In this document: positions 1,465 through 52,560 of the stretch, piece by piece | How the letters are laid out: every line of letters starts with the position of its first letter | Numbering within the stretch: position 1 is the stretch's first letter | NCBI GenBank assembly: GCA_045837725.1 | Contig: JBEWZL010000163.1 | Location: 62,001-126,000, forward strand | DNA length: 64,000 nucleotides | Direction: 5' to 3' | Source of the DNA: Vermamoeba vermiformis | Taxonomy: Eukaryota | The notes under the pieces: generated by a model | Seen by the model: only the letters and a program-made list of their open reading frames with translations | Told to the model about the DNA's origin: nothing | Database searches by the model: none | Program-made: the position numbers and the translations under genes

Positions 1465-4400
1465 ATGCCTAAAGTAACGATTGAATTTAACGGCAAGAGG
1501 TAAGCATTCCTTCCTTTTAGTTACTCCCGAGTGCTAACGACTGGATGGTTGTACAGCTACGAGCTCGAAGTTGACTTTGAAGATTGTTTGGAAATATTTA
1601 AATATCAAGTAGAATCTGTCACTAATGTCGAGGCAGCCAGTCAATATTATGACACGATTGATCCTCTCGAGGTAAAATTTCCACAACGAAGTTGACAAAA
1701 AATTATTCTTGAGCGCAAAAAATTCTAATTATAAGAATAAATCCTATTATTGAATTTTGCATCGTGTTCGTTAATTTTAAAAATGTCTTTAGAATCCGGC
1801 AGCGCTAATGAAGTACTTGGTGGAAGAGGTACGTTGCACCTGTTGCTGTCATTTAATAATAATTCAACGATTATTAATTAATATAAGGGCGCTGTATTAA
1901 AACTAAGTAACACTCCCGTGCCTTTCGAGCGAAACCTTCCTCCCATCCAAGGCCCTCCACCCAGTCAAGATCAAATTCAAGGTACACAACGTCTTTAATT
2001 AATCATTTTCTATTGTTATCCTCTAACGCCATTAATCAGAGTGGCAATATTCGTGCTCAAAAATCTTCTTTGACACGCCAATTGAGCAGCCGTCGTACAA
2101 AGCCAAAGACAAGAGTAATACCAATTCATTCATATTCATAGCACAGACCTCGTTAATAACATATCCCACAGTCATTTGTCACGCGTGTGCCTCAACGTGC
2201 CAAATGCCAGGTACCACAATAGCCCGTGCCAATCGTGACCCGTTCGTTTGTCAGTGCAGCAGCATTGAGGGCCACGAGTGCTTGTTCGCACCAAGGTACT
2301 ATAGGATCGTATATACTGCCACGAGGACATATGTTAAATATACCCCTCTTAGATCTAGCACCAGCATTGAACGAGTCGTGGATCCGCTTCGTTCAGCAAT
2401 GATGCAATCAATGCAAACAGCGAACAACCAAATCATTGCGCGCGTCCAAAGTCACGTGCAGCAACAGCAACAAACGCGACAATTGCAAGGCAAAGAGATC
2501 CAGTTCGCTGGTAGAATTGAAGCGCACATTGACGGTGTAAAATTGTACGAAGACCCCGAGTTACAAGTACGTGATTTACGCACAATACCTTATTTACTTA
2601 CTGTGTGACAGAAAAAAGCACGTGCATTGATTCCCGTTGAAGATTTGACCATCGCAGCGAACAAAGCAATCGCTGAACGAAAAGCAGCGCGTGAATCGAA
2701 CACGTTCAAAGACGAAGACTCGCAGTTTAGAAACGGCACGCAAATCGATCACGACTTCAGAGACGAGTTTATGATTCAAATGCTGCACTGGTTCAAAAAG
2801 GATTTCTTCGAGTGGGTCAATGAGCTGCCGTGCCACGCATGCAAGGTACGTACTAAAAGCTTCTTATTAAGCCAATGGTCTAATCTATTACAGGCCAAGA
2901 CGAAGGGCGTTGGTCGTGCTGAACCAGTCGGTGAAGAAAAAGGCAATCTGGCATTTATTGTCGAGCTTTATCAGTGCACTTTCTGCAATGCAATCACTCG
3001 ATTCCCGCGCTACAATCACCGTAAGTTACTCGCCAGCAACACCACAGTAGTAGTTTGTTAACCCTTGTTTTCAGCGGGTCGATTGCTTGAGACTCGTAAA
3101 GGTCGTTGTGGTGAATGGGCTAATTGCTTTGCGCTGATGTGCCGCGCTATGGGCTACGAGACACGCTCAGTGTTTGATTGGACAGATCACGTCTGGGTCG
3201 AGGTAAGTGCTACATCCATTCTCCGCTTCATCAGCGTGCTGACACCTCGTGCAGATCTACTCAGAAAACAAGAAGCGCTGGATTCATTGCGACAGTTGCG
3301 AGGCCAAGTTTGACACGCCGTTGTTGTACGAAGTTGGCTGGAACAAAAAACTGAGTTATGTCCTGGCATTTGGAGGTACGTACAGTGTGTTCGAAGTAAT
3401 CAGTCACTGTATTCTAATTTATCGTCACAGCGCACGAGGTCGTAGATGTCACTCGCCGATACACACGTGACTGGACAGCGGTCAAACAACGCCGCACTGA
3501 AGTAAGCGAAGACTGGCTCGCACGAAACATCACAGCGGTGAACAACAACTTGTTGATGCGTCTCCCTGATCCTGCCATGCGCACTGTGATTGTGCAGCGA
3601 AGAACAACTGAAGCCAAAGAACTCGAACAATTCGAGACTCTGTCACGTGACAGCAAGAAAGAGGAAGAAGAGGGTCGAATTTCTGGCTCTACTCAGTGGA
3701 AAGAACAGCGCGGTGAACTAGGCAACCAAAAGCCTGCCACGAAGAAACCTCAATCGAGCCACATTCCACAGACAAAGATGATTTTATTGGACACTTCCAA
3801 CCTGGACGTTGTGTTCGCGAAAATTCAACAATTCAATCAAGAGCTGAGTCAAAACGAAGATACCAAGCATGTCGCTTTGGACGCAAATGACGTTGCGCAG
3901 TTGAAGTCCCTTGTTGACACGTTGAAAGACAGCGCCAATGTAAATAAGCCCATCAACAGCGCTGCTTTGGATACTATCGACAAGGCTTTGAAGAACTGGC
4001 CAATCAATAAGATATTCCCTGGTACGTATTAGCACTCTTAGCAAATGAATTGTGCTAACGTTGCACAGTGTTGGACGTGACACGACTGGTCCTGACAAAC
4101 GACAGCGGCAACAAACAGCTCTGTCAACGATCTCCTTTTGGTGGCAAAAGTAAGCTCCCCTTTCATTCTCAATGATTGCACCAACAATGCTAATCGTCAC
4201 GCAGAAAATATCTTCGAGTTCGTGCTTCAGCTCCAGTCCAGCTTGTCGGCCAATCAACTGCTCATGTTGCGATTTTTGTGCAACGCAATCGGAGCAGAGA
4301 ACAGCAAACAAGTGCTCAAGGGCTACTTAAACGAAGCTATTGACGCGCTTGTTGTGGTCTCCAAGTCTGAGCAAAAAGCAATCAAAGTGAACTTGGCCAC

Positions 4401-4867
4401 GTGTCTCATCAAGTACGTGCCAGATCTGCTTTGCGAAATTTTGAATTTATAACTAACCGTTCATATTATTAGCTTCGTTGTTGCTATGAAAGATCTTTCA
4501 AGTACGAATTCAAAAGAGGAACAGAAATTATACGAGCTTTGTGTTAGCGTAAGTTTTGCAATTACTACCAACAATACGGATTTCACGAATTAATTTTATT
4601 ATAATATGTAGCTCATTAGCAAAGAAAAAGACGTTGAAGTGCTGTTTAGAGCATTAGTTTCGTTGGGTACCTTGGTAAGGACACTAAAATGTGATTGGCC
4701 AACCCAATTTGTTAACCTTATTACTTCAGTTGTCCGAACGCAAAACTAAGAATAAGACACTATTCGACGCAGATAAACAACGAGTTAATGCGCTGCTGAA
4801 GGACTTCAAAGAGGATAAAAACGTAAGCGAATCCGTCGAAGAAATACTGTACCTATACGAAGTATAA
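1465..4867 (+). CDS. PNG1: Peptide:N-glycanase (PNGase) with N-terminal ubiquitin-like domain, Cys-rich UBR-like finger and C-terminal PUL domain; multi-exon
   Basis: Motifs [11 protein letters not shown], Zn-binding PCHAC and QCTFC, RFPRYN, and catalytic [10 protein letters not shown] / DHVWVE / HCDSCE. The C-terminus [13 protein letters not shown]...[15 protein letters not shown] is PUL-like. Stop TAA at 4865-4867. Confidence 0.92.
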
Positions 4868-5137
4868 AAAGATTATACTCTCCATGTAAATTTATGATAT
4901 AAATGCCCAGTGGATATAATTCAGCGCACTACTACTAGTGCCAACAGTGGACCGAAATTTATCTCCGAGATTTTGAGATTACAGCTGCGTGTGCAATCTG
5001 AAGTTACATTCCACAATCTGTTTTACGCGTACAATCAATGTTCACCAGCCAAAGTAGTTAGTTCGGTCCGATTCAATTCATTTCGTTTTTTAAATTTCCG
5101 TGTCTTTACCCGAGCTAGAATCTTTCTTAAACGCAAC

Positions 5138-5943
5138 ATGGCAGCACAATACCACTTACCTGCATCTGGTGCAAAATTAGAAGTACATCTTATTGCCGGG
5201 AGACATCTAAAGGCAGCAGATGTGAACGGCAAATCGGATCCGTATCTCGTATTAAAATGCGGCGATGCTGAAGCAAAATCTCATACTAAAAATGTAATTT
5301 TTTATTTCGTCATATTTACAGCAATGGAACTAAAACGAAATATGCGCAGAACACGCTCAATCCGGAATGGAACGAAAAGATCGTGCTAGAATTGAAAAGT
5401 TCGAAACCTGAGTATTTGGAAATTATAGCACTCGATCACGACGCTGTTGGTAATTTGTGCTTTTTTAATCGAGATTTTGAATTATTCAGGCAAGGACGAT
5501 CCTTTAGGAGCCTTGGTGTTGCCTTTAAACGATTTGTAATAATTATCATGAATATATGATAAATTAGGATGCGGTACTAAAATTAACCAGGATCCAATCG
5601 ATGGAAAAACAACGGTGGATTAAACTCCAGGGAGTTGACACCGGAGAGATTTTTATCGGCTTAACGGCCATTAATTTTGGTAAATTCCGAATTAATATGA
5701 GATTGTATAATTATAGAACGCGTCTAACGAGCGAATTCTGATTCTCGATCCAATTTAGGTTATCCACCTGGCACTTTTGCTGGCTATGATCCTAAAACAC
5801 TGGACATCTCCTATCATATCCCACCTGCCTACGCACCAAAAGGTCAGTATGGTGGCTAATTCAATCAATACCAATCGTGTTTTCGCGTAGGGTACCTCGT
5901 TGAGAACGGGACCTTGGTTCGTAAGCCAAAGCAGCACAAATGA
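5138..5943 (+). CDS. Small C2-domain protein, multi-exon
   Basis: LEVHLIAGRHLKAADVNGKSDPYLVL...TLNPEWNE...ALDHDAVGKDDPLG with the Ca-binding Asp residues retained. The spliced frame ends at TGA 5941-5943. Confidence 0.85.
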
Positions 5944-6451
5944 GCCGATCATACTCGTAAGCTTTGATGTATACTCATCGGTACGAAATAAATTTTATTT
6001 AGCGGCATCGGACATATTCCCGTAACACAGCGGCGACGCCGAAAACTGAGAATGAGTTCAACACGGAATAAATCACCTTTCTAGATTTATCGTTGGAAAA
6101 ATCGAATCTTCCTAAGCCAAATAAGAGAATTTCCTGGCACGTGATCGTGGAGAACCTCTCGGAAGTGCCTCCGGTCCCGAGACGCGTACGTACGTTCATC
6201 TGCGGTTATTACTAACGATAATATTACATTATTCTCATCTGTAAATCGTATACGCATCATGGATTACACTAAATTAAATTGCTTAATTAGTAGCTGTCAC
6301 GTACACAAACACTCAGTCGTTCATGAAAGGTTCAAAATTTTGGAATAACGGAATTAATTGGAATCACCGTGTGCGTGAATTTGGCTATAAAACATAGAAA
6401 CACCCTCGTTTAATCAGTCGATATTAAATTCGAAAAGTCGAAAGGACACAG

Positions 6452-8220
6452 ATGTCGATCTTAACTATAGATCCGTTCAAACAAAACCCCTCCCTCGAGA
6501 GTCAAACTATGTCATTACCGCCCGACACAACCCTTGATACGTTATTCCACGTTCTTCTAAAGAAGTTGAAGATCGAGGGTATAGACTCGAAGCCTTGGAC
6601 TCAAAAACTTCAAAACAATTTGGTCATGAACTTGGGCCTGCTCATGCGTCTATCAGAAGAGGCTGTTAAAAAGTTGGAATTGCCCCTCCTGATCCAGGAT
6701 GAGTTGATAAAAATTATTAAACAAGATCCGTTGGCCCTTGTACAACTCTCCAATGAAAAGGTAATAATTTTAAAAATATCCTATCAATTTCCGATGCTAA
6801 ATTCAATATACTGCAAGATCAATCCGCCCCTTGGTTGTCCGTTTCACGTTCCCAAGGACGCCAAAGCACCTTCACCTGCCTCTTCCTCTACTGATGTGCG
6901 AGAGGTCCGAAAATCAGCCTCTCAAATGCCCGTTGCAACTTCACCGCGAGAACCAATGACCCAGCGGGCCGAGAGTTGTCCCGTTCTTCAAGTTGAAACT
7001 CGTGACAGATCTTCGAGCATTGGAGCACATGAACACGTTGGCTACATTCCTAAACATCAAATTTGGGTTCTTGATAAATCTCAACGCGACATTCTCAAGA
7101 AAACTTGGAGCGACATTACCAAAAAACAAGGCGATCACTTAGTAAATCTGTTCGAGTAAGTATTCCGAAATGTTTCCCACAAGTGACTTCAGTAAATGAG
7201 CTCACTTGTGAACCACTTTGTATTCGCGAATCATATTACTTAATGTATATTCCGATCAGTAACTTCTACGGCAAGTTCTTCGAGATCGACCCTGCAGTGA
7301 AGCGTCTCTTCCACGAGAAATCGATGCCCTATCAAGCGCGCGCTCTGATGCAAATGGTTACAATGTTAATGAAGTGCATTGACCGTTTAGACTCACTCAC
7401 ACCGCATCTCGAAAAACTAGGTAAGCTAACGACCAGTTCAAATCCTTTCAGTAATACAATATCTGGAGTAATTACGCGAGCGGTACAATTTACTGAGGCA
7501 ATTTACTCGACACAAAACTTAAAATTCTCTGAACGAATAAGCTTTTCAGTGAAACTCGTTCCATATTTGTACAATCTTGGCACATTGTTGTGTGCGATAT
7601 TAATAGATTCACAACAGGAGTCTCCCATCTTATCTACGGAGTCGAAGTTAAAGACTTTCAATCGTGGGCCATCTCCCTCGTCACCACCTTCGAGGCTGTG
7701 CTGGGCAAAGAGGCATTCGGCAAGACTGAAAAAGATGCGTGGATGTCAATGATTGCCGGAGTTTCGTCCATCATTATCAACAGCTACGACGCTGCACGAG
7801 CTGGCAAGTCAGGTTTTTGCGAGGTCTCTTTCGGTGGCAAGACCTTCAAGAAGTACTGGTGCGCTCTCAATCACGAGAAATTAAGCATTTATCGCGACAA
7901 AAAGGTAAGCTCCATTCAACCACTTTGAGTTTGGCTCTGGATCCAGTCTCTAACCTACTTTTTTACAGCAAACCAAGCTTCGTTGCGAATTCCCTTTGAA
8001 GGAGTTGAATGCCGTTGAAGTTGAGGACTCGGGCGTTATCAGTGGCCCCACGCCAAACATCCTCAAAGTAGATGCGGAGAACGATGACATCTACATTGCC
8101 ATTAGCAGCGAAGAAGAGATGAAAAGATGGAAAGAAGAATTCTCCATGAGAATCAAAGCTATGCAACGCGTGCTTACGTTGGGCGAGAACCACAAGAACT
8201 CGTCTTCAGCAGATGAGTAA
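6452..8220 (+). CDS. SAM-like domain + CP motifs + globin + PH domain protein (start at 6452 or 6509)
   Basis: Spliced globin LDKSQRDILKKTW..NFYGKFFEIDPAVKRLF..YQARALMQM..LEKLG|VSHLIYGV..AW. A PH domain follows: KSGFCEV..FKKYWCAL..IYIAISSEEEMKRW. Confidence 0.85.
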
Positions 8221-8440: not shown

Positions 8441-10571
8441 ATGGCAGAGAGCCTTCAGCAACTGCTCGAGCAAAAAGAGCGAGATTTGGAACTTGCTGCC
8501 CGTAAGTAATTGACACCGTTAAAAATCCATCTCATAATATTATGTTACCTCGAGAAAACGTTAACTTTATTACTTGGTCGCTTACACACGATTATTTTAA
8601 TACCAATTTTCGCCAATAAAATTCGATTCTAATAAAATATTTATCCATAGAATATGGCACTGCCTTATTAGAAGAAAATAAACAGCTCAAACAAAAAGTG
8701 AAGGAGTTAAAAGAAAAGGTAAAAGACAAATTTTTTATGACAACTCGCTGATCCCAGCTCCTCTTTGTCGTTTAACAATGCCCAGATACTATGTTAATGA
8801 CATAAAATCGGTTTTCATTTTTTTGTTATTCAGACGGCCAGTATGGAGATGGAAGGAAGTTATGAAATGAAAGAGCAAATCCAGCTTTTAGAAGAGGCAA
8901 ATAAATTATTGAAGAGCAAACTTACTATTCTCGAGAGCAAAAATGGCGATTTAGAAGCCGTAAGTATCCTCATAGCGCGGCGGATCAAATATTAATTGAC
9001 CTGTCAATTTCTCTGCTCGTGCTAACATGATACCCAACAGAAAATTATCCTCAAAAATGCACAAAAAGAAGACTTGGCTCAAACTATCGACGAGCTAACG
9101 CGAAAGCACAAAAATGCTGAAGAGCGGATCGCAATGTTGCAGAAAGAACTTGAAAATAATAGTACAGCTGGTACTATTTACGACCTAAATGAACAAGTAC
9201 GAGTGTTTGGATAAGTCATGTTAATACTAACCACTTATATCAGTTGGAAATGCAAAAAGAAGTTATTCAAGATCTGCGAGCAAAACACGCAGAGACGCAA
9301 CGAGCAAATATTGAACTCACCAAGAAATTAGGTAGCAATACATTAATCATTCGATACTATCACTAAACCTTATATAGATGATGCAACAAAGAAGATTGAT
9401 CAATTGAATTCAACGCAAGTTTCAAATGAGATAGATCCAGCGCTTCTCGAAGAGCTAAAAGAGCTGCGACAGTCTAACGCACAATTCAAACGCGAAATTA
9501 AAGAAAAAGATGAGATCATTCAAGAGTTGCAAACAAGACCAGCAGAACCACGACCGACAATTTATCAACGCACCATTGTCGAAGTACCGTCTTATGTTCC
9601 TGTGCCTGGTAATTCAGACCCTGCTTCTGAAGGCCATTCAAGTGGCTTTGAACATGTTAATAACCCTGATTCAGATATTACTGTGCAACCTAAACATGAC
9701 ATTACAACTGACCCGCAGACAAGTTCTGACACTTTGACACCTGTGACAACTTCAGCTCCTAGAGTGGATGCCAACAATATCAGCAATGAAATTACAGTCG
9801 ATAGTACCGGCGATTTATTCAACACAACTTACGTAGCGAAGAGTGACGAAGACAGAGCCGAAGTTGTTGTTGCGACCAACGGCCACGTGAAGAGTGAGCC
9901 ACTACCTATTCAACAATCCACAGAAAATGGTCATACCGAAACCAAAAAGACAGAAAAAACACCGCCGTCATCTCCAAAAGCGTTGTATCGTGACCCTCGA
10001 GTACAAGATCTGGCATCAAAACTTGCCGAGGCCGAACGACAACTGAGCATCAAATCAGATGAAGTACAACGTCTGTCTCTCAAGCTAGCCGAACTAGCTG
10101 AACGAGCATCTACGGCGCCTCAAACAACCATCATCAACCAAGTTGTTCCACCCAAGAAAGAGGTACATGTCACTCTTTTGGTTCTGACTTGTCTAACCTT
10201 GCCTCTTAGGGATTCCTTGTCAAACAAGGTGCCCGCATTAAGAACTGGAAGCGAAGGTTCTTTTTCCTCGAATCAGACTTCTTGTATTACTCCGAGTCGC
10301 CGAAGGTAGTGTCGTGTGCACGCAACTCATCACAGCATTAGCTAACAGTCATTCGACTTAGTCGCGCTTTGTAACCTTGGGAATGATCAAACTCGACGGC
10401 TCCGAAGTAGACCAAGCCATAGTGCCCAACAGAGCGTACGTTATCGCCGTGAAAACAACCGACAGGACGTACTACCTCTGCGCAGAAACCGAGGAAGACA
10501 TGCACGAGTGGCTCAAGGTGCTCAAAGAAAAAGTTGAAGAGATTGCGGAAAAGAAGAGAAATGAGAAGTAA
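8441..10571 (+). CDS. CC1-box coiled-coil protein with C-terminal PH domain (candidate dynein adaptor)
   Basis: Spliced N-terminus LLEQKERDLELAAQ|YGTALLEENKQL, long heptad coiled coil, and a low-complexity linker. The PH domain reads KKEGFLVKQGARIKNWKRRFF...YYLCAETEEDMHEWL. Confidence 0.85.
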
Positions 10572-13834: not shown

Positions 13835-16800
13835 ATGAATCGTGTAAATATATTTATTTTTGTAGCATTATTTTCGCTTGTATTTCTAGATGCGTGCTTG
13901 GGAGCAGCCATCCCGAAAGGAAACATCTCTCCAACGAGCATCACCGCAACTCCTAACCAACAATTCACCTTCGCCGTATCATTCGACAACGTCGGTGACG
14001 CAATCGCTTACGGTCCCTTCCTGGATGTTCTTTTCCCGTACGATCCGTCAGTCTCTCCGTTTACAGGAGTGAACGTAAATTCAGCAACTAGCTATCTAGG
14101 CATTAGTATTCAACCTGTTATTATGACTTTCACGGCTCTAACGCCTTGCTTCTACCACCCATACCTTTTGAATACTACAGGTAATTGACGGCAACACCAA
14201 AAAATAAAAGCTAATACATTGCTAATGGCATAATTTAGGTGGCGAAGATACGGTTTGTGGTACCCCGGGCACGAAGCTTTACTCATACAGATTACCCTTC
14301 TTGTCGTACGCATCTTCGCAGCCCACCATTGATCTTTCTCTATCGGCGTCAATTTCTCAAAACTGTAAGTCGTAAGGCGCTAATATAAGCGAATCATTTA
14401 TTTATCACTTCAATCGCTAAATGACTGCGGCAATCGCTAATGTACATTTTCCTCATTTAGCCGCCACTATTTCGGTGCGAGGAGGTTTCACTTACGTTAC
14501 TCCGGACAAGCCCGTAACGCAAGCATCGCTGATTAGCGCATGGAAGAACGCTACAGTATCGGCTTCGGTAGCGAAACCAACACTGACGTTTTCGTCATCG
14601 ACTTTCGGAACCGATCCTTCAACAATTTACAGCTGTTTCTTCAATTTGAACTTCGCAACGGGCACTCTTGTTGTGAATGGCACCGCTGTTATATGTAAGG
14701 AGTTATTTACAATTTTGGAAAAAATCACGGAAGTAACGATCCGCTCTTTCTAGGGTTGCCTTGCGGTGTGCACTTTATTGGATTTGATGCTGCTAGCACG
14801 GGAAAAAATGTAAGAATATTCTAGTGCCATTGCTTCACTTTCTGACATCTTTTAGCTTGCTTACAATAACGGCGCTTTCCAACCAGAAACCGGATTCAAG
14901 GATCAAGTGACCGTTGATTTGAATGACAACCCTAATACTACCGTGCAATTGAACAACGTCTACGTGGCGTTTCAATTTTACTTCTCTTACGATGAAGTAG
15001 TGCAATGCTATGGTGGCGGCGTTGGAGGTAGACCAATAGTCATTCCTTGGAGCGTGGGCATTCCTTATTATATTTACGATCCTACATGCAATTGCATTAA
15101 GGTAAGATAAGAAATAGTTATCTGGGAACAACAAATTTGTTATTTCCAAATTTGGAAAAATCATGCATTTACCCTTCTTTTGCAGTACTACAACCCTGGC
15201 ACTTCTGTTACGACCTCTGTGTCTCGGTTTACGATCGATCGAACTATGGTGGATCCAGCGACCCCCAGCAGTAAGTTTGGTTGGGTAAAATTCTAGCTTA
15301 ATTAATTCGTGCACAACAGCAATCAAACCTGGAGACACTTTGCAGAACAGAGCCAACGTTAGCTTTTATTTGGCAGAGTCACACACTTGCATTGACTCCC
15401 TAACGTGGGCTGAAAATGGCTTGGTTGATGTTCCAGTCAGTGGTAGCGCATCCGTTAAAGTAGATGCAACCACTTTGACCTTCACCCCTGCCACGAATGG
15501 AAATGGCGATTTTACCTATGATATCAGTAACGGATTGGGGCAAAGTCCGTTGACTCCGCCCTATTTTTTCGAGGCTCGGTATCAAACAACAATTGAGGCA
15601 AACGCAGATCGAACTCACGGATCGACCGTCAGCGCTGTAACTGAGTAAGCAATCTATAAGTGGTATCAAAAGTTACTAACGAGGGTAGTTTCTACTTTAA
15701 CGAAGTCAATTGCACGACTGGAGAGGTTGTTAAGCCCATCCACTTGACCGCTTCAAATTCCTTGCGCATCACTTCTGGAACATTAACGATGACGCAGTAC
15801 GCCAAGGATGGAGCTTGTAAGTAACGTCTCAACCAGAACTCCTTTTCTAACGTAGCCAGTGTGCAACCCCTGCTCCACGACTATCAGCCCAACGACTTTG
15901 GTAACCGTGTCCGTCAAGTACACGTTGCCAATCTCAACCTTCAAGAATTTGAAGTTGGATATCTACATGCCTTATCCACCTCTGCCAGTCTCCACAATGA
16001 CTTTCGAGTACGTAACAGTACTTAATCCGAACGGCCTTATTAACAAGTTAAAACAGCGATGTTATCGATGCTAATCCGCCTGCTTTGTATCACTGCAAGT
16101 TTGGTTCGGGAGAGACTTTGAGATCTACGTATGGAGTCGTCCCTACTGTGTCCTCGGATGCATCGAACAACCGCGTAACCCTAACTTACCCTGACTACTA
16201 CGACTCATCGTCCGCAAGCACCACGACTCAAATTCTTTGCACGTTCCAAACCGCGGACACAGACTTCCCTGATGAGCTTCCTGTTGCCGCTCAAATGGCT
16301 AGCTTCGAGCAGAATGTTGGCACATCCACTACTTACACTACTTACGTTTTGTCGCGGCCTGGTAAGCTTGTTGAGATTTATTTTGCAACAAAGTACTGAT
16401 AATAGTACAGTAATCGGAAGTGCCAACATATATAAGGGCTTTATCGCCTCCAATAACCCCCTTGCTTCGATGACGACAGGCTCGATCTCTTTTCGAGCCC
16501 CCGGTACATCGGGTAATAGATGGAACGCAGCTACCACACCTATTACTTCGACGTACTTCTCGAGCAATCAAGCTAGCTTGACATCAAGCGTCTCGCAAGT
16601 TGACGCCAATGATCTGGTCACGGTCATCATAGTCATTAACAATCAAGGCTCTTCACCTGCTTATGACGTAAAAGTGTCCGACGTTGTTCCCTCTGGCCTC
16701 GTTCAACCCAGCGGAGGCTACAACATGCGCGTCACAAATGGTGCTGGCACAGCGCTCACAACTAGCGGAAATTTGTTTTCTGGTGGCTTGACCATCACTC

Positions 16801-19800
16801 GTGGTACCAGTCCACCAATGCAAAGCAAGGCTAGCACAACAGGAGATAATATCATTGTCATCACCTACGACCTGCAGATTAACTCAATCTCCCCTGGCTA
16901 CACAATTACCGTCGACTCTGTAACACTCCTTGGCTACGCGGCTTATGTGGGTGGAACACAATACGCTAGTAACATCAAGTCTGGCACGATCACGATCGAT
17001 GGTGCCGTTCCATCCATTCAAACGCCCGTCCTAGTGTCAAGCGTAAGATCAACAACTTTTTAGTTCTAAGCTGATACTGATCTCATTTTTAGTCACTCAC
17101 GGAGACTGGCTCCAGCAGATACTCAAGCTCATATACTGACTTTGCACTGGGGGAGTCGTTCATATTGTCCGTGACAATGAAATTCCCCGAGGGAACTACG
17201 AAGTCTACTTACTTTGAGTTCGCTTTTCCTACAGTTGCCACGGGTGTTATTCAGTACGCTAACTCGACCATTAGCTACGGTGGTAACGTCTCTCCTGCTA
17301 CATCGACCGTATCAAGCGACAGTTCTACTGTTAGAATTACCTTTGGTGATGTGACCAACGTTGCCGGTATGTGTAACAAGTAGCGCTTTGAATGTGGATA
17401 CTAATTTTGTAATAGATGACACTGTTTCTGCCGACGACGAAATCACAATCCTCATTGCAGGCATTGTTGCTGGCACTGGCAATGCTCAATCGAGCACTGT
17501 TCGCACTAGCACTGGATTGTTGCAATATGGCATTCAGAACTCCGCTGTCCAAAATCTGACCACTACTTTTGGCTGCGAGCTTGTTGAACCTGCCCTGACC
17601 ATCTCACGCACGTGGTCCATGACCAGTTCATCCAATGCCGATGACACCATTACGATGACGATTGTTGTGCAGCACAACTCTGGAACAACTAACTCTGCTG
17701 CCTTCAAGTTGAACATCACTGACGCACTCGGATCTTACCTTGTCAGTAACTCCGATGCCACGGCTACGATGGGCACCATTGTGCAGCAAGATCCCTTACA
17801 AGTTTCAATCCCCATCTTCACCATCGGCAGCACTACGACCATCACTTACACTGCCAAGTTAGTGTCCAACTTGGAGCTCAATCAACAAGTTGTCAGCACT
17901 GCCTCGCTTGCCTACTACAGTGTTCCTGAAGCCTCTTTGGCGAAGAGTTACAGCGCGTCTTCCGCGACCACGCAGAACTCGGCAAAGGCAAGCATTGCGA
18001 CTGTCTTAATCGGCACTAGTCTTGCAGAGACCACCAAGAGCAAATATTCCACTTCGATCGATGACTTGGCAATTGGCGAAACGGCGACCATTCAAAGTAC
18101 TGTTACACTTCCCGAAGGCAAAATCTCGAGCGCTGTTCTTACGTTCAAAACGCCACAAGTGACTGACGGCGTCATGGAAATCGTCTCTGCTCGTATCTAC
18201 TCAGTTGGTACCAGTATTTCTGGCTCTCCTACGCCAGCCGTCAATGAAGCAGCAACAATCACGCAAGGAACTGCATCCGTTCCTGCCACTGCCACTTGGA
18301 ATTTGGGCAATTTGGTCAATACTCCCGATAACGTTGCTGATGCAAACGACAAAATCGTCATCGAAGTCGTTGTAAAGCCGACCGTTGGCAAAGCTCTCCA
18401 AAGCAGCACTGCTCGCTCGTTAACAGCAGCCCTCGCTTCTTCATTGACAACTACTACGGTCACCGCCATTCAGTTTGAAATTGTTGAACCAGTGAAGACT
18501 CTTGCTAGAACTACTACAATGACAACTTCGAGCGATGGTCACGATCTTATCAACATCACGCTTACAGTCGGTTCTGGCTCTTCTGACAACGCAGCCGCCT
18601 ATCAAACCGTTGTTACGGACGATGCAAGCTCTTCGATGACACTAGTCGTGGGTTCTGTCACAGTGACAGGCACTGCTTCGTACACCGTTCAATCAGGCAA
18701 TACTGCTGGTGATACATCACTTTCAGTGCTCATTCCTAAGATTCTTTCTGGTGCATCGAATATCGTGATCACTTACCAAGCACGAATTGTCGACAACATT
18801 CAAGCAGCCACTTCTGTCGTTGGTACTGGCTCGATGATCTACTATTCCGACACTGACACAAGTGCAACAAACGCCAAGTCGTACACACAAACAGCTTCCA
18901 ACACTGTCGTGTCCAAGACTCCTGCCATTTCAATTGTCGTCGCTAGCACGTCGCTCTCCGAGACGGGTGCAGATCCTGGCAATTCTGCCATACAGACTTT
19001 GGCTATCGGTGAAACTATTGCCTACACGATCACTTTGACGCTACAAGAAGGTTCATTGAGCAGCACTCAAGTCACTTTCACCGCTACTCAAGTCGCTACC
19101 GGAACTCTCGAAGTCCTTGCTGCCAACGTTTCCTTCGTTGGTTCTTCCATCACCGGAAACCCTCCAACTGTTGGACAGACTGCCACTGTCTCTACTGGTG
19201 GCTTGGGAACGAGCTCTATCGCCAAATTCATCTTGGGCAACGTATACAACGACCCTGATGACACGCAGAATGCTCAAGACACGATCCAGTTCACTGTTGT
19301 TTGTCGTCCGTACCTCGGTTTGGCAAGTCAGACTGGAAATGCCCTCACGAACACAGCTGCCCTCGCCTATGGTAGCTCTGGTTCTGCTTCAGCCTCGAGC
19401 CAAGTGAAGATCTACGACGCTGTTCCTCTTCTTATTTCCAGGACCTCGAACATCGCAACGAGTGTTGATGGAGGAGATGTCATTTCAGTCACGCTGACTA
19501 TTCAGCCCGATACTACTTCAGGAAATCTTGGTCCTGCGTATTCAGCTGTAGTCAACGACTTGTTGGCTCCTGATATGAGCGTGGTCATCGCCTCAGCTGT
19601 CTCTAACAAGACTAGCGCCGTGATTACTACCGGTCCCACATCAAAGGATTTGCAAGCTTCTATCCCTGTCATCCAAAAGACCGATCCTGCTGTCCGCATT
19701 ACTTACAACGTTACGGTGAACTCGCAAATCGAGGCAAGCTCGGTCTCTATGCAAGCAAAAGTGCAGTCCTACACGAGCCCTGATATTATAAACTCGAAGA

Positions 19801-22800
19801 CCTACACTGTTCAGACATCTGCTGTCTCTGCAACAGTGCCAGCAATCGCAACCACCCTGGCATTGGTATCAACCTCCTTGGCTGAAAGTGGCGCAGACTC
19901 CAGCAATGCTTTGATTGAGAACTTGTTCCTTGGAGAAGTTGCCCTCTTGCACCTGACAGTTCAATTCCCCGAGGGTAACACATCGAACGCCGCCCTCAAT
20001 TTCACGGTTCCGCAATCAGCGAAGAACGTCATGGAAATCGTCTCCTCGAAGGTGACAGCCATTGGAGCCAACTTATTCTCCAGCGTTCCCATCGCTGTGA
20101 ACCAAGCTGGCACTGATACTGTTGGCGCTCTTGGAGTTGTGTCATTCACTCAATTCAACTTTGGCACTATCTACAACGCCCCTGATAACACCGTATCAAG
20201 TGCGGACAAGATTACTATCGAATTCCGTGTTAGATTTGCCAGTGGCCAAAGCAATGAGCCCACTGGTACTGCAGTGTCGGTTTCAATGTTCACTGCTTCA
20301 CTTCGTGCCACGACTCCGAATAGCTACCAGTTTAAGCTCGTAGATACCACTCAGTTGTCGCTCATCAAAGCGATTCCCTTGGCAAACATTATCGATGCAG
20401 GCGACATAATCACAGCAAATATCACCGTTACACCGGCCAGCTCAGCAGCAACTGCAGCTTACAACATCGTGGTTACGGATGAACTTGGTCCTTACGTCAC
20501 TGTCCTCACGAACACCATAACCAAGTCAGACGCCAATGCCGTCGTGACAGTCAGCGGTACATCCGTAGTTATTCAACTTGGTGTGCTATCTGGTACCAAC
20601 AGTTTGATCGTCACGTATCAAGTCCAAGCAATTGCACAGCTTGAAGTGCTGACAACGATGACTTCCGAGGCCAACATGACGTATTACTCCAACTCGGATA
20701 TTCAGAATGCCAAGGTCTATCAAGTGACGAGCCCCAGCTTTTCTTCAACCAGTTCTCGCGGCTCTGTTAGCAGCTCTATCACAGCAACATCGCACAATGA
20801 AACAACCAAGGCCCAGTACGACACCAACGTTGAAGATATGATTCTTGGAGAAACTGCCACAGTGACATATGTAGTCACTTTCGCTGAGGGTAGAACAACC
20901 GGAAGTTCATTATCCGTTGTTTCTTCTGAAGCTGCTGGCCGTGTCGTAGAAATTGTCTCCATGTCAGTTCTCAGCGTGGGCTCAAAGCTTTCATCTTCCG
21001 TGTAAGTCTGTATTACGATATAATTACATTTCATTTTTTCTAACATTATTTTTGTAGCAATCTCCTGACAACCACTGCGGCTTTGTCTGAAGGAACAGTG
21101 GCGGGAGTCAACACTCGTGCTTCAATGAACTTGGGCGATATTCTCAACACAGCTGACAACACTAACAACGCTAACGATCAAATGCGTGTTACTGTTGTAC
21201 TCCGATTCTGGCATTCAGCCTCTACCACGCAGACTGGCACTGACGCCTTGACCACGATCACATTCAGTGCCGATGCTTACATCGACAACACTACTACAGC
21301 TTTGGAGTTGCTTCTCACCAAGCCATTGATGTTCACCAAAACAGCAATTGGTGTGCAAGACGGACTTGACGAAGGGGATAAGATCAACGTTACGATTGTC
21401 ATTTCTCGTGACAGTAACAGTGCTAACCTTGGACCTGCTTACAAGATCTCAATCACCGATGACTTGTCTTCTCAATTAGTGGTAGTTCCTGGCAGCTTCG
21501 TAACGTCCAACGCCAACGTGGTCAAGACTGAGACTTCCTCAACCACCAACACAGTCAGGTTTGATCTTCCAGTATTGCTCATCACGGACAGTGACGTTGT
21601 GATCACTTACTTCGTCACTCCTATTGTTGGCATTCGCCCCAACACTTACGTGTCTAGCACGGCATCGTACTACTATCAAGCTAGCAACATCAACGACGCA
21701 ACCTCGCCCTCATGGAGCTCTCAATCCTCAACTTACGAGTTCACTTCTGCACTAATTTCGGCTCGTACTACAACTAGCGCGTTAGTTACTGGAGCTGCTA
21801 CGTACAGAGATCCCGAGTACATCACGCTGTCGGTTGGTCAAGTAGGTGTCATCAAAGCAATTTTTGGAATGCCCGAGGGAAATACTACGACTGTTGTGCT
21901 CACTGTTGAGAGTCCGACTGGTCCGGACACTTTGATGGAGATCACCAGTGCCAAGGTTTATTCAAGCGGTTCGAAGCTTAGCTCCGATGTTACGTAAGTG
22001 CAATTTTATGGAATCAACCAGGACTAACAGATTTTAAGTATTACGAACGTTGTTCCTGCAATAACGAACACTTCAATGCCGTATGAATCTAAGGCTGTCT
22101 TTACCTTGAGCTACATTTACAACCAAGCCGACAACATCAAGAACACTAACGACGAATGGGTCGTTGAGCTGAACGTCATATTCCCACTGGAGATTACGTC
22201 CAGCAACATTCAACCTTGCATCACAACCTTCAGTCTGACTTCGGACACTTACAACGTCTCCACTCAAGCTGCATTCCTTCCTGCACCAACATCTGATTTG
22301 TTGTTGGCTCGCTCAAGTTCAATGAAAGACAACATGGATGCTGGTGACTTATTCTCAGCTACATTGACAGTGTTTACCGCGAGTGCTAACGGTAGTGACA
22401 CCTTCAACGTCAATGTCAGGGATGTCCTCTCTGGCTTGGATTACGAGGCGCTATCTGCTCAATTCAGTGAAGAAACAGCTTTCTTGATTGCTGACCCTGC
22501 CGACTTCGTCTCAGAGTTGCCATTCCGCGAGTTCAACAGCTCCGACTACGTGATTCAATACAAGCTTCGAGTCGGTTCTGAAATAGAAGCAAATGCTCAA
22601 ATTTCGGCATTCGCAGAGTTGCACTATCAATCTGGCAACATTGGAGCCTTGGCTAAGAATGTCTCGCTTTCCACGAGAGTATTCACAGCAACTACGGCAA
22701 GTCCTACATACGACTTCCAAGTCTCAACTATGCTCCCCGAGACCACTGAGGTTGCAGGAGTACACCAAGTCACTTTTGGTGAAACAGCTACAGCCACTTT

Positions 22801-25800
22801 TACGATCACATTCACGGAAGGTCGTACTTCAGGCAGCCAGATTTCAGTCTTCGCTAGCCAAATTACTAGTGCTGTGGTCGAGATCCTGTCTCTAACGGTC
22901 ACTCACGTTGGTTCCAAGATCTCGTCCTCAGAGTAAGTACATCGGGATAAATAGGCCTCTTTTGCTAATTATTCGCTTAGGTACCTTTCTACGGTTAAAG
23001 CGGTATTGATCAAGAGCACTAATGGTGTGAATGCCAATGCTACTCTATACCTCGGAGACATTCTGAACACTTACGACAACGTGGTTGATGACAAGGACCG
23101 AGTTACCGTTGAAGCCGTGTTCAGATTTGTGCCCGATGTGAATGAAACTATTGGAGTGACCGCCACGAACTCGATTCAGTTTGACTCACAGACTATCCAC
23201 CATGAAGAGCAATTCTCTATGGTTCTCGTTGATTCTCACTTGACCATCACTGAAGACACGTCAGCTCAAAACGTAGCAGCAGGAGACATCATTTACTTCA
23301 CGATCATCGTGTCTCCTATCGCAGGCAGTACCGGTCCCCTCTACGACATCCAAATTTCCGAAGATTTGCCTGAGCAGCTCAACTTGGCGAGCGCTTCCGA
23401 CTCAGTGGCCACGAATCAAGGCAATGTCGTATCTAGCTTGCGAACTGACAAGTTCACTGTTGTCGTTCCTATCTGGACCCCAGCTGACGGTGATATTGTG
23501 GTCTATGCTGCATGCACTGTCTCGAAGCCTTCAGTCACCGGTAGCAACTTCAATAGCAACGGTGCCACGTTGAGCTACAGGACAGCCCCTTCAGCCAAAA
23601 CTGATAGCTACATTGAACGCGCCGATCAAGCCAGTGCCCTCAACTTCTACACGGCTCCCAGCACTTTCGTGCTTAAAGAGGCAGATCCAAACAGCCGTCA
23701 AGTTGGCTCCATCTTCCTTTTAGAGATTGGTCAGGTGTTCTTGATGCAAGCCGAAATCGTTTTTGCTCGTGGTGTATCTAGCAACACGACACTCGCTTTG
23801 GCCTTGCCTAATGACTTGGCGGGTGCTCTTCAGCCCATTGAAAGCATGATCAACTTCACCGGTGTTGCCGTTGACCAGATCGACTTCAACTACGAGCTCA
23901 GTGACTCCAACAACGATGGCATCAAAGATCTATTCACTGTCCATTTGGGCGATGTGCTGATCGTTGGTAACAACGAGACTCAACCTGTTGACAGCTTGGT
24001 AGTCATCACGTTCGTCACCATCACGAACCGCGTCTCTCGAGACACTGGTGACGTGCTCGCAGCTACTTTGGGCATTACTTTCTCTGGCTCAGCTCCCTCC
24101 ACTGATTCGCTCTCCCTGCAAATCGTTGAGCCAGTGGCCACTAGCAGCACTGTAATCACACAAATCAGCCAACTCTTCGAGATTGACGACACGTTCACTA
24201 CTGTTGTGACCTTGCAACACGAGCTGACGTCTCATTCTCCTTTGTATGAGATCGTCATTCAACTCGCTGGCAATACATCCGCTTATCACATTCTCAATGG
24301 CACAGTAACCACGTCCATCGGTAGGTCATGACTCAATTGTATTATGCTTGCTAACTATGTTATTAGATTCTATCGTCACCGTTGATGCCGACACCCAAAC
24401 AATCTACATTATGAAATATGATGTGGAATCAAACGCAGACTTGGTAGTTACATTCGACTGCGTCTTTGTCGAAGCTACCGTTGGTTCACCAATGGAAACT
24501 GGTGTAATTGTCACGGGCAAGAGTTCTGCACCTCACAGCGATTACTCTGAATTCGACGAGGCAATTGTCTACACCATCGAAGAGAGCTACAGATCACTTG
24601 ACATCAAGCGCCCTGACGTCACGATCTTCGTCTTTGATCCTAAGACTGGTGAACGTCTTGAGAAGCTTGAACTGCCCGTGTCAGGTGAAGGCTACGTTAA
24701 GGCTCTCATCCACGTGCCCAAGAGCTTGGTTCCTACGCTCTCAATTTACTTCGAGTTGGATGAAAAGTTGGCTTTGAAGGACGGCGAACTGGTCACTATT
24801 CAAAGCAACACCACGCTGTACATTGGTGGTTCTGCAACGACACCTCTTGAGCAAATACTCGAGGCCGGTCTTAACGTGGAAAACAACGGCACCAAATTCA
24901 GCATTGCTTTCAACGGCTCAATTGACGTCCCTGAACATCAAGCCTACATTGAAGTCTCGTTCCCTGTCGTGAGACTTAACACCAACAGCAGCGGTAATTC
25001 TTCCACTTCAGCTTGGTAAGTAGATTTATTGACATGATGGAGCACCTAGCTGACGACTATTAGGATTGAATTCCCCGGAACTAACAACACTACGAACAAC
25101 GGGACTCGCACTATTATTCCAGGCGACGTTATCAAGTCGATCGAGCCTGAGTTGACGGTGATTGTCACTAAAGTCGATCCAGTTGAAATTGAAAAGTCTG
25201 GCGAGAACGCAACGATCAACTTGCTCATTTTGCACACTACTAGAAGCACGTACACTGCCTTCTTGGTGAACTTCAAGTTGACATTGCCCGACATTTACGA
25301 CTTTGTTCCTGACACTGTATTTGCTCGTGTTGATAACGAAACGCTTGATAGTAAGTGAATTTATTCGCTATGTTGCTCTTACTAACAAATTTTATTCAGT
25401 CTACGTGAATGGAAGTGATTTGATCGTCAAACGCGACCATTTGAACTTGAACGAGCGCATTGCCATCGAGTTCGTCGCGATTGGCTACAACCCCGAGTTC
25501 TCTTCAACGAGTTCATTGAGCAACATCTACTGCTCGTACACCACGACAGCTGACACGACCACGCAGTTCTCGGTCTACAACCAGTTGTCCGTCTACAGAA
25601 AGATCGAGATTGGTATGCATAGTTTATCCCCCCTTGACGCAGCAACACTTTATCTAACGCTTTCAATAGCCCCTGATGTTGCTGTCTTGGGTCCCTTGTC
25701 GTACTTCCCCACTGACGATATTGCGCTGTCCCCGGTCGAATCAGTCGGAGCCTCGTACAACTTGCCACTGCTGTCAACCTCAAACGACAACTCCTCGTTC

Positions 25801-27887
25801 ATCGCATTGAGCTTCGATTTGAGTCACATCAAGTCTTACTTCGCTCGCATTCACCGTACGTCAATATGTCTTCGAGTAACATCAACTCACCAATCAATTT
25901 TAGAACTTGCGCTCGTGCTGCCTGTTGCAGCCACTGAGGGTCAATTCTCTGACAGCCAGTTGCACATTCATGTGTCGTCGATTGGCGGCTATGTTTGGGA
26001 TGAAAACACAGCTACCTATGTGCGTAGAGCGGATAAACAACAGATTTTAAGTGCGTGACTAACAAATATTAGGCGTCTATGCTCTCCGTTAGCCCTCACG
26101 AGAACAGCGACAGACTGCAAGTCGGCGAGATTTCGCTTCCTGACGCGACCAACTACGTTCAGATCGATCTCGATCGTGCGTTGATTGTGCTGAACGAGAA
26201 TCAAACCAAGGTCAACTTGCTCATCCACGCCTCTGAAGGTGCTGATGCTGCGAGGCTCACCATCTTCTCCAAAGAGTCTAAGGCTAACAAAGCAGCTCGC
26301 TTGATCATTGAGTTCGAGCGTCCTCCTGAATTGACGTGCCAACAGTTCCCCGTCAGAAATTCCGAGTTTGGCGCTGTCACGTGGTTGACAGGCGACTTGT
26401 GCTTGCCTGCCTGTCACGCCACATCTGCTGGCTTAATCTGTGATCCTACAGTCTCTTTTACGCCAGCCAACGATCACAAGAACTTGATGCCCTTGTTCTC
26501 TTCGGAGAGCAGCATTGAAGGCGGTGCTTTGCGCTTCGTCCTCAAACTGCCCCTTAGCGTCTTGCCCTTGGACGACTCTGTAAGCTTCAAGTTCAAGCTT
26601 GGCAACGAAGAGCGTGCCTCTGCCGTGTACGCTTATCCTGGTGTCTTGTGGACTACACGCGTTGTAAATGCCACTGAGACTGACCTTGGTGAAACGCAAT
26701 GGATCCTCGAAGTGCCTTGGAAGCTGGCACTCACTGCTGGCTGGTCCGAACTGGTCGACAAGAAGTACAACCGACACGTGTGGAGCACCAATCTGACTAT
26801 CTTGATTGACGACGAATATGTCTGGCGCTATCCCGTGGAAGTGCAAGTGCCTGAAGTGCCGCAACTGGGCACGGTCTTCTCCACCAACTCTGCTAGCAAT
26901 CGTGTGTTCAACAGCACTAGTTCGAACTCAACGACTGGCATCAGTCTTGACACTCCCTACATTGACTTTGTGCAATTGAAGCTGGTCGTGCCAATCATCA
27001 GCGTCAATACCAATTCGAGCCTGTTGGAGATCATGAACTCGACTATTAGCGCTGAATGGTCGCTGGTCGATGACACCGATTACAGCTCTTGCGCCAACAC
27101 GACAACTTGCACTCAGACCTTCAATTTGTTGATCCCATTAGAACAAGAGCTGCCTTCGATCAATCACACTGTTGTTGTCATTGACTTTGAGGCCTCGTCA
27201 TGCCCTTCATGCAACAAGCGTCTCATCCCGTTCTCGATTGACTTCAACTTTGGTGCCAGCAACATCCGTTCGGTGGTTACATTGCACTGGGACTATGAAG
27301 GCAATGGCGAGGTGTTGAACACAAATCTCGAACCTGAATCAGTGTTCACTATCTTCGAAAAGATCCTGGTCCACGTGCACGTCGATCAACTGCCCCTCAA
27401 TCGCAGCACGTTCGTGCAAGGTGTGCTCGATCAAACAGCATACGACAACTTGGCGCTAGTCATTGACAACACCGAGTACGTCCTCATTGAGCACGGTCAA
27501 GTCACAGCCACAGGCCAAGAACTGCAACTCCAACTCGTGTCACAGAGCGAGGCAGACGTTACCGTGTCACTCTCCTTCGCTAACTCCAATCTCATCGTCA
27601 ACAACGAGACACAAGCCACGATTGTCACGGGCGTATTCACCGATCAGCTGCATCAGCTCAACTTCACGCAGCGCACTTCATGGCCCGTGTACACAGCGCA
27701 CAACGTCACGCTGATCATTCCACCTAGTCCCGATGATGGAGTCGTCGCACCAGTTGGCACGGGCATCGACGTCATTCTGCCTGCTGTCATCATTCCTGGT
27801 GTGTTTTTGTTGCTTCTGCTTGCTTTCCTGATTTGGTTCGTTTTGATCGCTGCGGGTCAATGCAACCACTACTGCTTGCAATATTAA
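13835..27887 (+). CDS. Giant (about 4,000+ aa) type I surface protein/adhesin with bacterial-type DUF11/fimbrial-D2-like Ig repeats, a DNRLRE/CBM96-like domain and a C-terminal TM; about 20 introns
   Basis: Signal peptide MNRVNIFIFVALFSLVFLDACLG and contiguous S/T/V-rich exons joined by short GT-AG introns. Motifs GE....TVTLPEG and D(A)GD.I..T..V...AAY..VTD.L recur. TM VILPAVIIPGVFLLLLLAFLIWFVLIAAG. The exact 3' end is uncertain because an extra short exon is possible. Confidence 0.85.
16570..25350 (+). repeat. About nine degenerate two-domain protein repeats, period about 930 nt (about 310 aa)
   Basis: The A-domain signature (LAIGETA/LFLGEVA/MILGETA/VTFGETA..PEG) recurs near 17150, 18070, 19000, 19925, 20840, 21830, 22770, 23720 and 24680. 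Confidence 0.8.
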
Positions 27888-51827: not shown

Positions 51828-52560
51828 ATGAGCACATTCGGAGGAGATGCATGGGGCCCGTACAATATCCATAATAAACGCGTAGTAAGTCTACGGAACC
51901 TTTGACGAGTTGGATCTAACAAAGTTTCTTTTAATTTATAGCGTCAAAACACCATTCTTCAAGGAATTGGCGAAGGTACTTGCTTAATCAATATTATTTA
52001 TCAAGCTTAAGAATTATGGCGTACATCTAATCTCACGTTTGAATATTTGTAATTGCTAATATTTTTAAAAATCAGGAGAAGCCAAAAGATTGAGTAATGG
52101 GCAATGGGTAATATCTAAATATTAGTGTTATACTCATATAAAATATTAACGAATTTTTCAGGCTTGTTTGGTGTGCCCTTCAAGGCCCGTAATGGATACG
52201 CCCGAGATGCTGGCTGTGCATCGCGGCGGAAAGAAGCATTTAGCACATTATGAAACACATCAACAGACGCACAATATTGTTAGTACAAACAACGATAAAA
52301 AACGACGACGTGACGGTGAAGATGAAATTGAATCCGAAGAGAAAAATCAGCCACGTAATAATAGCTACAGAGAGCCACAAGTAGGGCCGATGATGGTACC
52401 GCGCAACGTTAAAAGACAAAAAATACTCAATAACGATGGGAATATCAACAACAAAGCTTCTGAAAACAGATCTGGGTTTGGTCAGCTTCCATCAAGTTTG
52501 AACGCCAAGAATAGCGATGTTAATACCAAAACTGTCTCAAATGTAAATACTAAAATGTAA
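51828..52560 (+). CDS. SCNM1: SCNM1-like zinc-finger protein (minor spliceosome factor), apparently short at the C-terminus
   Basis: Spliced MSTFGGDAWGPYNIHNKRR..GEAKRLSNGQWACLVCPSRPVMDTPEMLAVHRGGKKHL resembles the SCNM1 motif GRFACAICPHRPVLDTLAMLTAHRAGKKHL. Confidence 0.8.

Follow-up and report, generated by a model that had tools for sequence, protein, structure and literature searches.

Hell's Gate globin I (HGbI) of the bacterium Methylacidiphilum infernorum has very high affinity towards O2, which is bound by Tyr(B10) and Gln(E7) (PMC4476040, sections available to us); lipid binds to this globin stoichiometrically and shifts the coordination of the haem, and a lipid peroxidase activity is also treated in the accessible part of the source (PMC11203436). 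A second globin of the same species, HGbRL, was considered by its authors to be a putative globin-coupled sensor (again from the available sections of PMC4476040). Classical globin-coupled sensors, as they appear in the accessible text of a 2020 globin review (PMC7475203), are bacterial or archaeal and combine sensor-family, protoglobin-like globins with methyl-accepting chemotaxis protein (MCP) or enzymatic outputs; androglobin is also named in that text, as a chimeric eukaryotic globin. We examined how a gene from the eukaryote Vermamoeba vermiformis compares with these systems. It lies at 6452–8220 (+) of a 64,000 nucleotide stretch of DNA (assembly GCA_045837725.1, contig JBEWZL010000163.1, positions 62,001 to 126,000 of the forward strand; this whole stretch is termed the window), and it joins a globin to a PH domain.

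The product of the gene is a soluble multidomain protein of 448 amino acids, predicted from its sequence to be a haemoprotein, and is one of a conserved family of proteins from microbial eukaryotes that share its domain order. The architecture is almost certainly a SAM-like domain, a disordered linker with Cys-Pro motifs, an F-type 3/3 globin and a PH domain, in that order. Full-text literature searches yielded no account of a globin-PH fusion; in public protein sets, the Globin and PH pair is annotated automatically by Pfam. By term search, neither pleckstrin nor PH domain is mentioned in the text available of the 2020 globin review (PMC7475203), and the portion seen of supplement 1 to a 2012 census of fungal globins lists no globin-PH architecture (PMC3287990). 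The globin-PH architecture is conserved, and it is apparently undescribed in the literature.

Gene structure and the globin-PH family

The region 6452–8220 (+) is a real eukaryotic gene of five exons and four GT-AG introns. The gene model was made by joining exons by their coordinates from the window sequence, and its 448-codon frame runs from the ATG at 6452 to a TAA stop at 8218–8220 without a frameshift or internal stop; a candidate TATA box (TATAAAA, 6386..6392, +), found by reading the sequence, lies about 60 nucleotides 5' of the start codon. Exon 1 (6452..6760, +), which is collinear with the public protein P0040, encodes residues 1–103, comprising the SAM-like five-helix domain and the tail N-terminal to it. 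Intron 1 (6761..6817, +; 57 nucleotides, phase 0, GT..AG) keeps the frame and contains no stop codon, such that its retention would insert 19 residues and leave the protein unbroken; it is missing from P0040, and is run through by P0042, P0043 and P0044, which are unspliced, prokaryote-style open reading frame (ORF) calls on public contigs. The next three features were placed by the gene model: exon 2 (6818..7155, +), encoding residues 104–216 (the last in part) with the disordered linker, both Cys-Pro motifs, globin helix A and the beginning of B; intron 2 (7156..7259, +; 104 nucleotides, GTAAGT..CAG), which falls between the second and third bases of the B7 codon; and exon 3 (7260..7420, +), encoding globin helices B to the start of F with TyrB10, PheCD1 and GlnE7. 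Intron 3 (7421..7617, +; 197 nucleotides, GTAAGC..CAG, acceptor AG at 7616–7617) separates the first base of the F5 codon from the other two. Exon 4 (7618..7904, +) translates to 95 amino acids with HisF8, globin helices F–H and the first three PH strands, and is followed, again by the gene model, by intron 4 (7905..7968, +; 64 nucleotides, phase 0, GTAAGC..TTTTTTACAG), which lies within the PH domain, and by exon 5 (7969..8220, +), which supplies the remaining PH domain and, after it, a short tail of acidic or neutral character that ends with the TAA codon at 8218–8220. A sequence-only reading of this DNA had placed a splice acceptor at 7617 and globin introns at about B7 and F5, away from the canonical sites; both placements held, the globin intron positions being anchored on B10 and F8, and the gene has four introns in all, beyond the globin introns named in that reading.

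P0040 (454 amino acids) is identical to the model in 402 of 454 alignment columns and is collinear with it across all four junctions; Globin and PH are precomputed Pfam assignments for this protein, and one source names it 'hemoglobin-like flavoprotein'. Unspliced ORF calls on near-identical public contigs show the behaviour expected of introns, with P0042 running through intron 1 as above, and P0004 and P0005 reading into intron 4. P0003, also from a near-identical public contig, runs into intron 3 and shows indels there relative to the window, the flanking exon 3 and exon 4 protein being identical; variation between strains or alleles, with relaxed constraint on the intron, would fit this pattern. 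The distant ORF fragments P0011 (34% identity) and P0022 (30% identity) stop just past the same PH position as intron 4, and P0038, we infer, appears to keep an intron at the matching helix-B position. The unusual intron sites therefore look conserved in the family, as judged from ORF calls rather than from aligned genomic DNA. Introns at B7.2 and F5.1 are added data for the long-standing question of globin intron origin.

One explanation of such a locus is a faulty gene model, by which neighbouring globin and PH genes, or a pseudogene, were wrongly joined. Single exons do give sub-threshold Pfam matches (exon 3 alone against Globin, 14.7 bits, E = 0.046, vs a cut-off of 22; exon 5 alone against PH, 19.4 bits, E = 0.0016), and the assembled transcripts come from homologues (P0025, a EukProt TRINITY ORF that is complete and has both domains, and P0031, from MMETSP) and not from the exact locus. 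The single-exon scores fall below threshold because introns split both domains, that of the globin over three exons; the orthologue P0040 (89% identical) scores 39.6 bits for Globin vs a gathering threshold of 22, and 40.8 bits for PH vs 25.1. Exon 4 by itself is one uninterrupted ORF carrying HisF8, helices F–H and PH strands 1–3, and as the globin-PH junction lies inside this exon the fusion is independent of splicing, in full agreement with the earlier claim that the globin reads in frame into the PH domain. The match of P0040 to all four junctions, the frame clear of frameshifts and internal stops, and the occurrence of the same architecture family-wide likewise contradict a wrongly joined model, which can be regarded as extremely improbable.

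The family was searched for with exon 4 as the query against 1.84 billion representative proteins at E ≤ 1e-3. There were 37 protein matches, of which 32 align across both halves, i.e., over the globin-PH junction, and a Pfam scan at E ≤ 0.01 found both Globin and PH in 24 of the 37. Tandem (Globin-PH)x2 proteins account for four of these 24 (P0018, P0019, P0029 and P0033), and P0041 is a fifth such protein; P0039 (795 amino acids) has three PAS domains after the PH domain, and P0035, a 613 amino acid fragment, has PH and PAS domains. The remaining 13 matches were fragments, the pure multi-globin proteins P0016 and P0023, and one unrelated match, P0037. (P0016, among the weaker matches, is 1208 amino acids long and has seven Pfam Globin stretches followed by cytochrome b5, without PH.) A family profile from which P0040 was left out aligned to residues 8–446 of the window protein with 344.6 bits (E 7.5e-105), and the best of 200 shuffles used as a control reached 5.2 bits. 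For prokaryotic relatives, 56 pattern matches obtained with P0040 in 185,579 species genomes yielded none that was confirmed, by a method that reaches close relatives only; an ESM Atlas search with P0040 gave no usable match.

An AlphaFold2 model of P0040, for which a 21-sequence family alignment was used, had a mean predicted local distance difference test score (pLDDT) of 77.6 and showed a five-helix domain (residues 20–98), a disordered stretch (99–184), the globin (185–337) and the PH domain (339–446), with the five-helix domain, the globin and PH all confidently modelled. Helix 311–337 (helix H) is followed at once by PH strand 1 (339–347). At this globin-PH junction the family alignment is free of indels; the length of the linker varies widely.

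Haem pocket, PH domain and N-terminal region

The globin domain (residues ~179–331, exons 2, 3 and 4; 7043..7802, +) was placed by the Pfam Globin match of P0040 and by the match to HGbI. TyrB10 (Tyr219) stands in NFY (codon 7267–7269), PheCD1 (Phe233) in KRLF (codon 7309–7311), GlnE7 (Gln241) in YQAR (codon 7333–7335) and HisF8 (His273) in GVSH (codon 7626–7628), and LeuE11 completes the pocket set of a 3/3 globin. These four residues had been named from the sequence; all of the motifs were found at the named places, and the HMMER alignment of P0040 to HGbI bears out the helix assignments. Family members keep this pocket: B10 is Tyr in 15/15, CD1 Phe in 17/17, E7 Gln in 15/19, E11 Leu in 17/19 and F8 His in 20/21 sequences, the lone F8 exception, P0021, resembling a retained intron. 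G5 is Phe in the window globin, and is Phe in 11 and Tyr in 10 of 21 family sequences.

Among 52 PDB sequence matches HGbI (3s1i) was the best (E 2.1e-11) and HGbRL (3wfw) the third-best (9.8e-06), and further matches were a neuroglobin variant (7e-05), Vitreoscilla haemoglobin (1.1e-04) and flavohaemoglobins (E 0.011–0.014). Foldseek comparison of the P0040 model matched 3s1i_A, a 3-on-3 sandwich, with a template-modelling (TM) score of 0.90 and a root-mean-square deviation of 1.8 over 135 columns at 27% identity. No HemAT, globin-coupled sensor or protoglobin chain was present among the 52 PDB matches, and no Pfam Protoglobin match at E ≤ 0.01 among the 24 proteins with both Globin and PH. 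The globin is of the flavohaemoglobin/single-domain (F-family) lineage and nearest to HGbI, and haem binding is predicted from its sequence. Being of F lineage, with no protoglobin match in these sets, it is therefore no globin-coupled sensor by descent; the sequence-only reading had called it one, and this claim was not sustained, as the globin lies outside the S family. A classical globin-coupled sensor was rejected on the same ground, i.e., the wrong globin family.

The PH domain (residues ~333–440, exons 4–5; 7806..8193, +), placed by Pfam and AlphaFold2, has seven strands and a long C-terminal helix; in the model of P0040 the strands span residues 339–416 and the helix residues 419–446, and a Trp in this helix is nearly invariant in the family alignment. 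Phosphoinositide-binding PH domains have a basic motif, K-Xn-(K/R)-X-R, over strands 1 and 2. The window PH domain has Val where the strand-1 Lys is expected, and FKKYW instead of (K/R)-x-R in strand 2; the relatives P0006, P0009, P0012 and P0013 carry WK(L/V)R in strand 2. The last 30 residues include 9–14 Lys/Arg in six relatives vs 5 basic and 5 acidic residues in the window protein. With the canonical lipid residues and the polybasic tail both missing, lipid binding is therefore doubtful for the window protein. Membrane binding would be plausible for part of the family and is doubtful for the window member, for which the earlier suggestion of membrane recruitment is not specifically supported.

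The SAM-like domain spans about residues 20–98 (window 6509–6745). In the full-length P0040 model it consists of helices 28–38, 47–55, 61–64, 69–74 and 79–90 with pLDDT ~95, and window exon 1 modelled alone gave the same five helices at pLDDT ~75 (63.8 for the whole model). When the exon 1 model was submitted to Foldseek, 37 of 41 among the matches listed were SAM domains, with E of 0.48–4.6 and TM of 0.45–0.66; an ESM Atlas search with exon 1 had three SAM clusters among its leads, at 0.80–0.83, below the 0.9 threshold. Pfam gave no match in the N-terminal domain of the window protein, and its SAM_2 family matched 1 of 11 family members (E = 0.012). A profile of the N-terminal domain run against PDB sequences found nothing significant, the best match being an unrelated dehydrogenase (E = 0.082); a Caskin/EphA6 SAM construct stood at E = 1.1. 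The short helical, SAM-like N-terminus that had been noted from the sequence was thus recovered as a predicted five-helix bundle with mostly SAM Foldseek matches, all at E ≥ 0.48. 'SAM-like fold' is a fair label for the domain as modelled; the evidence is consistent but weak, and short of SAM family membership.

The linker of about 80 residues holds two Cys-Pro (CP) motifs, GCPFH (motif 1, Cys110; 6833..6847, +) and SCPVL (motif 2, Cys157; 6974..6988, +). Both are present as the earlier reading had it, both are kept in P0040, and the equivalent P0040 residues 99–184 have pLDDT <50, i.e., predicted disorder. Motifs of this type, CP followed by a hydrophobic residue, are enriched in the family: in 32 sequences, which are the model and 31 family matches, many of them fragments, CP[FVILM] was observed 10 times vs 1.09 expected and CPF 6 times vs 0.15 expected, and for each motif 0 of 2000 shuffles reached the count, the enrichment being inflated by relatedness in that inherited motifs are counted repeatedly. 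The near-duplicates P0003, P0004, P0005 and P0040, the non-family proteins P0016, P0023 and P0037, and P0038, a truncated family member with no CP by reading of its sequence, were left out of the count. The motif stands at the N-terminus (MxCP...) in five proteins, in the linker in the window protein (twice), P0010 and P0041, and in the C-terminal tail in P0020, all of them disordered regions. An IRP2 peptide, TPILCPFHL, binds haem with a dissociation constant (KD) of ~0.8 uM (Table 1 of PMC10377097, in the part available). The window sites, each a CP with a hydrophobic residue in a flexible segment, are putative haem-regulatory motifs by their sequence.

Such motifs could mean that the protein handles or buffers haem, where the CP motifs would catch labile ferric haem, the globin would store it or pass it on, and the PH and SAM-like domains would anchor the protein close to sites of haem use or transport. 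This would be served by the pair of CP motifs in the disordered linker, of which one has the IRP2 CPFH core (PMC10377097 Table 1, as above), by the recurrence of CP-hydrophobic motifs at shifting positions in the family, and by the precedent of HO-2, for which binding and buffering of labile haem are reported (PMC8808069, accessible sections). However, three of the 10 members bearing the N-terminal domain (P0014, P0019 and P0025) have no CP motif, and there is strong conservation of a distal pocket suited to gas-ligand chemistry, for which a mere store would have no use; we consider a haem buffer improbable.

Possible functions and genomic setting

We tentatively take the window protein to be a haem-based, gas- or redox-responsive adaptor in which the rigid globin-PH unit would act as the switch, a reading drawn from the sequence and the structural models. 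Haem would be held through His273 (F8), Tyr219 (B10) and Gln241 (E7) would support tight O2 retention or NO chemistry, and movements of the globin, ligand- or redox-linked, would be relayed to the PH domain. Such a relay is possible because helix H meets PH strand 1 without a flexible linker and the junction is free of indels in the family. Docking on a partner or a membrane would fall to the PH domain and the tethered SAM-like domain, and the CP motifs of the linker might provide a second, labile haem site or a thiol/disulfide switch. P0039 has PAS domains after PH, which suits a signalling context; HGbRL is a precedent for the same globin type joined to a small non-enzymatic domain, and sensor-like working would be possible by analogy. 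The adaptor is quite possibly a functional analogue of a globin-coupled sensor, with a globin from outside the sensor family and a non-enzymatic output. A role in O2/NO sensing or aerotaxis is something that we only infer.

Several points weigh against such an adaptor. F-type globins characterised so far mostly bind O2 or dioxygenate NO, rather than act as sensors. The SAM assignment is weakly based (fold matches at E ≥ 0.48 and the one SAM_2 match at E = 0.012), a CP motif occurs in 9 of the 32 sequences, many of these being fragments, and the enrichment of the motif carries the inflation mentioned above. The strand-1 Val, the FKKYW of strand 2 and the evenly charged last 30 residues of the window protein also count here, and the neighbouring genes give no functional hint.

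The chief alternative is a targeted enzyme: the globin would act as an NO dioxygenase, O2 scavenger or lipid peroxidase served by an external reductase, and the PH and SAM-like domains would only localise it. Its nearest solved relatives point this way, being HGbI, Vitreoscilla haemoglobin, Campylobacter single-domain haemoglobin and the flavohaemoglobins, and for HGbI the Tyr(B10)/Gln(E7)-based O2 affinity (PMC4476040) and the lipid binding, haem coordination change and lipid peroxidase section (PMC11203436), each as far as the accessible parts of these sources go, would suit an enzyme; in several relatives, PH strand 2 is of K-x-R type and the tail is polybasic, as would suit membrane anchoring. 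The protein is, however, without a reductase domain by Pfam, the window PH domain is without canonical lipid-binding residues, and the rigid, conserved globin-PH junction and the PAS additions suit signalling better than plain anchoring. A targeted enzyme is a possibility that we regard as rather unlikely; if the protein is merely a targeted NO-detoxifying globin, it would still represent a new way to localise such chemistry.

Returning to the adaptor, the boldest form of this reading is that the family is an undescribed, conserved class of eukaryotic haem sensors, in which the globin would report O2, NO or redox state through the rigidly attached PH domain, the CP motifs would report labile haem, and the output would be recruitment through the PH and SAM-like domains and not catalysis; such a class would be an independent, adaptor-type counterpart of the bacterial globin-coupled sensors from another globin lineage. 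We hold this wider claim to be doubtful. With a globin pocket of the high-affinity type joined to PH, a SAM-like domain and motifs of the haem-regulatory type, the family is a tractable candidate for coupling O2, NO or haem status to membrane or scaffold signalling in microbial eukaryotes. It also demonstrates that a globin lineage outside the sensors can give rise to an architecture like that of a sensor.

The neighbours within the window are PUL, C2, coiled-coil, Ostalpha-type transporter, RasGEF, Sec15, SAM, SCNM1-type zinc finger and LRR/ankyrin genes. A PUL-domain gene (3418–4449, +) and a C2-domain gene (4898–5559, +) lie 5' of the globin-PH gene, the latter with an apparent stop and an AATAAA-like signal near 5940–5995, about 450 nucleotides before the globin-PH start. 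The next gene on the 3' side (8441–10309, +) begins about 220 nucleotides past the globin-PH stop and has several short exons; its product is rich in Glu, Lys and Leu and looks like a coiled coil, and Pfam found no family in its large ORF at 9347–10309. Eight long ORFs at 16185–27887 (+), with about 3,700 codons in total, are rich in Thr, Ser, Ala and Val and gave one weak DUF11 match only by Pfam; this run may code for a single giant, repetitive protein, secreted or at the surface, split by short introns. Farther along are the RasGEF (31651–32043, -), the Sec15 C-terminal domain (40550–41359, +), a SAM_1/SAM_2 domain protein (48867–50282, -), the SCNM1-type zinc finger (52150–52557, +) and an LRR-plus-ankyrin protein (55853–58309, +). 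Scans of the window for Rfam families and tRNAs were negative.

Comparison with described globins and haem-regulatory proteins

HGbI (3s1i/3ubc) is the best match of the window globin by both sequence and fold, and shares with it a compact 3/3 structure, the TyrB10/GlnE7 distal pair and HisF8. It differs in being a bacterial, single-domain protein of ~130 amino acids without a SAM-like domain, CP linker or PH domain. HGbRL (3wfw) is like the window protein in joining the same globin type to a small, non-enzymatic C-terminal domain; it differs in that this domain is Roadblock/LC7 instead of PH, and in being bacterial, in crystallising as a site-swapped dimer, and in having no N-terminal domain or CP motifs.

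The classical globin-coupled sensors (HemAT and the diguanylate-cyclase and kinase sensors) share with the window protein the order of globin followed by C-terminal output and the idea of a ligand relay; the window globin matches Pfam PF00042 rather than Protoglobin, and its output would be a PH domain. The flavohaemoglobins (E. coli Hmp 1gvh, R. eutropha FHP 1cqx and the yeast protein 4g1v) share the F-family pocket and are among the PDB sequence and fold matches. A flavohaemoglobin was rejected as a description of the window protein: no FAD/NAD reductase family was found by Pfam in the window exons or P0040, and PH is at the C-terminus. Also rejected as members of the same family were the Mucoromycotina 'unknown N-terminal + FD' globins of the 2012 fungal census, because in these the globin is C-terminal (e.g., 408 amino acids with the globin at 249–383) and leaves no room for a PH domain, as listed in the available part of the supplement (PMC3287990).

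The haem-regulatory motifs of IRP2, HO-2, HRI and others resemble the window motifs in having CP with a hydrophobic residue in a flexible region, and GCPFH shares the CPFH core of IRP2. No report of CP haem-regulatory motifs tethered beside a globin was found, in searches of which none was aimed at that pairing.

Eukaryotic membrane-tethered or chimeric globins include globin X, C. elegans GLB-12 and GLB-33, and the Leishmania globin-coupled adenylate cyclase. To our knowledge eukaryotic chimeric globins are few, with a known role for only a handful, and we know of no PH domain, SAM-like domain or CP motifs in these four or in androglobin. Compared by description, all five are like the window protein in that an added module or a lipid anchor sets the location or the output of the globin.

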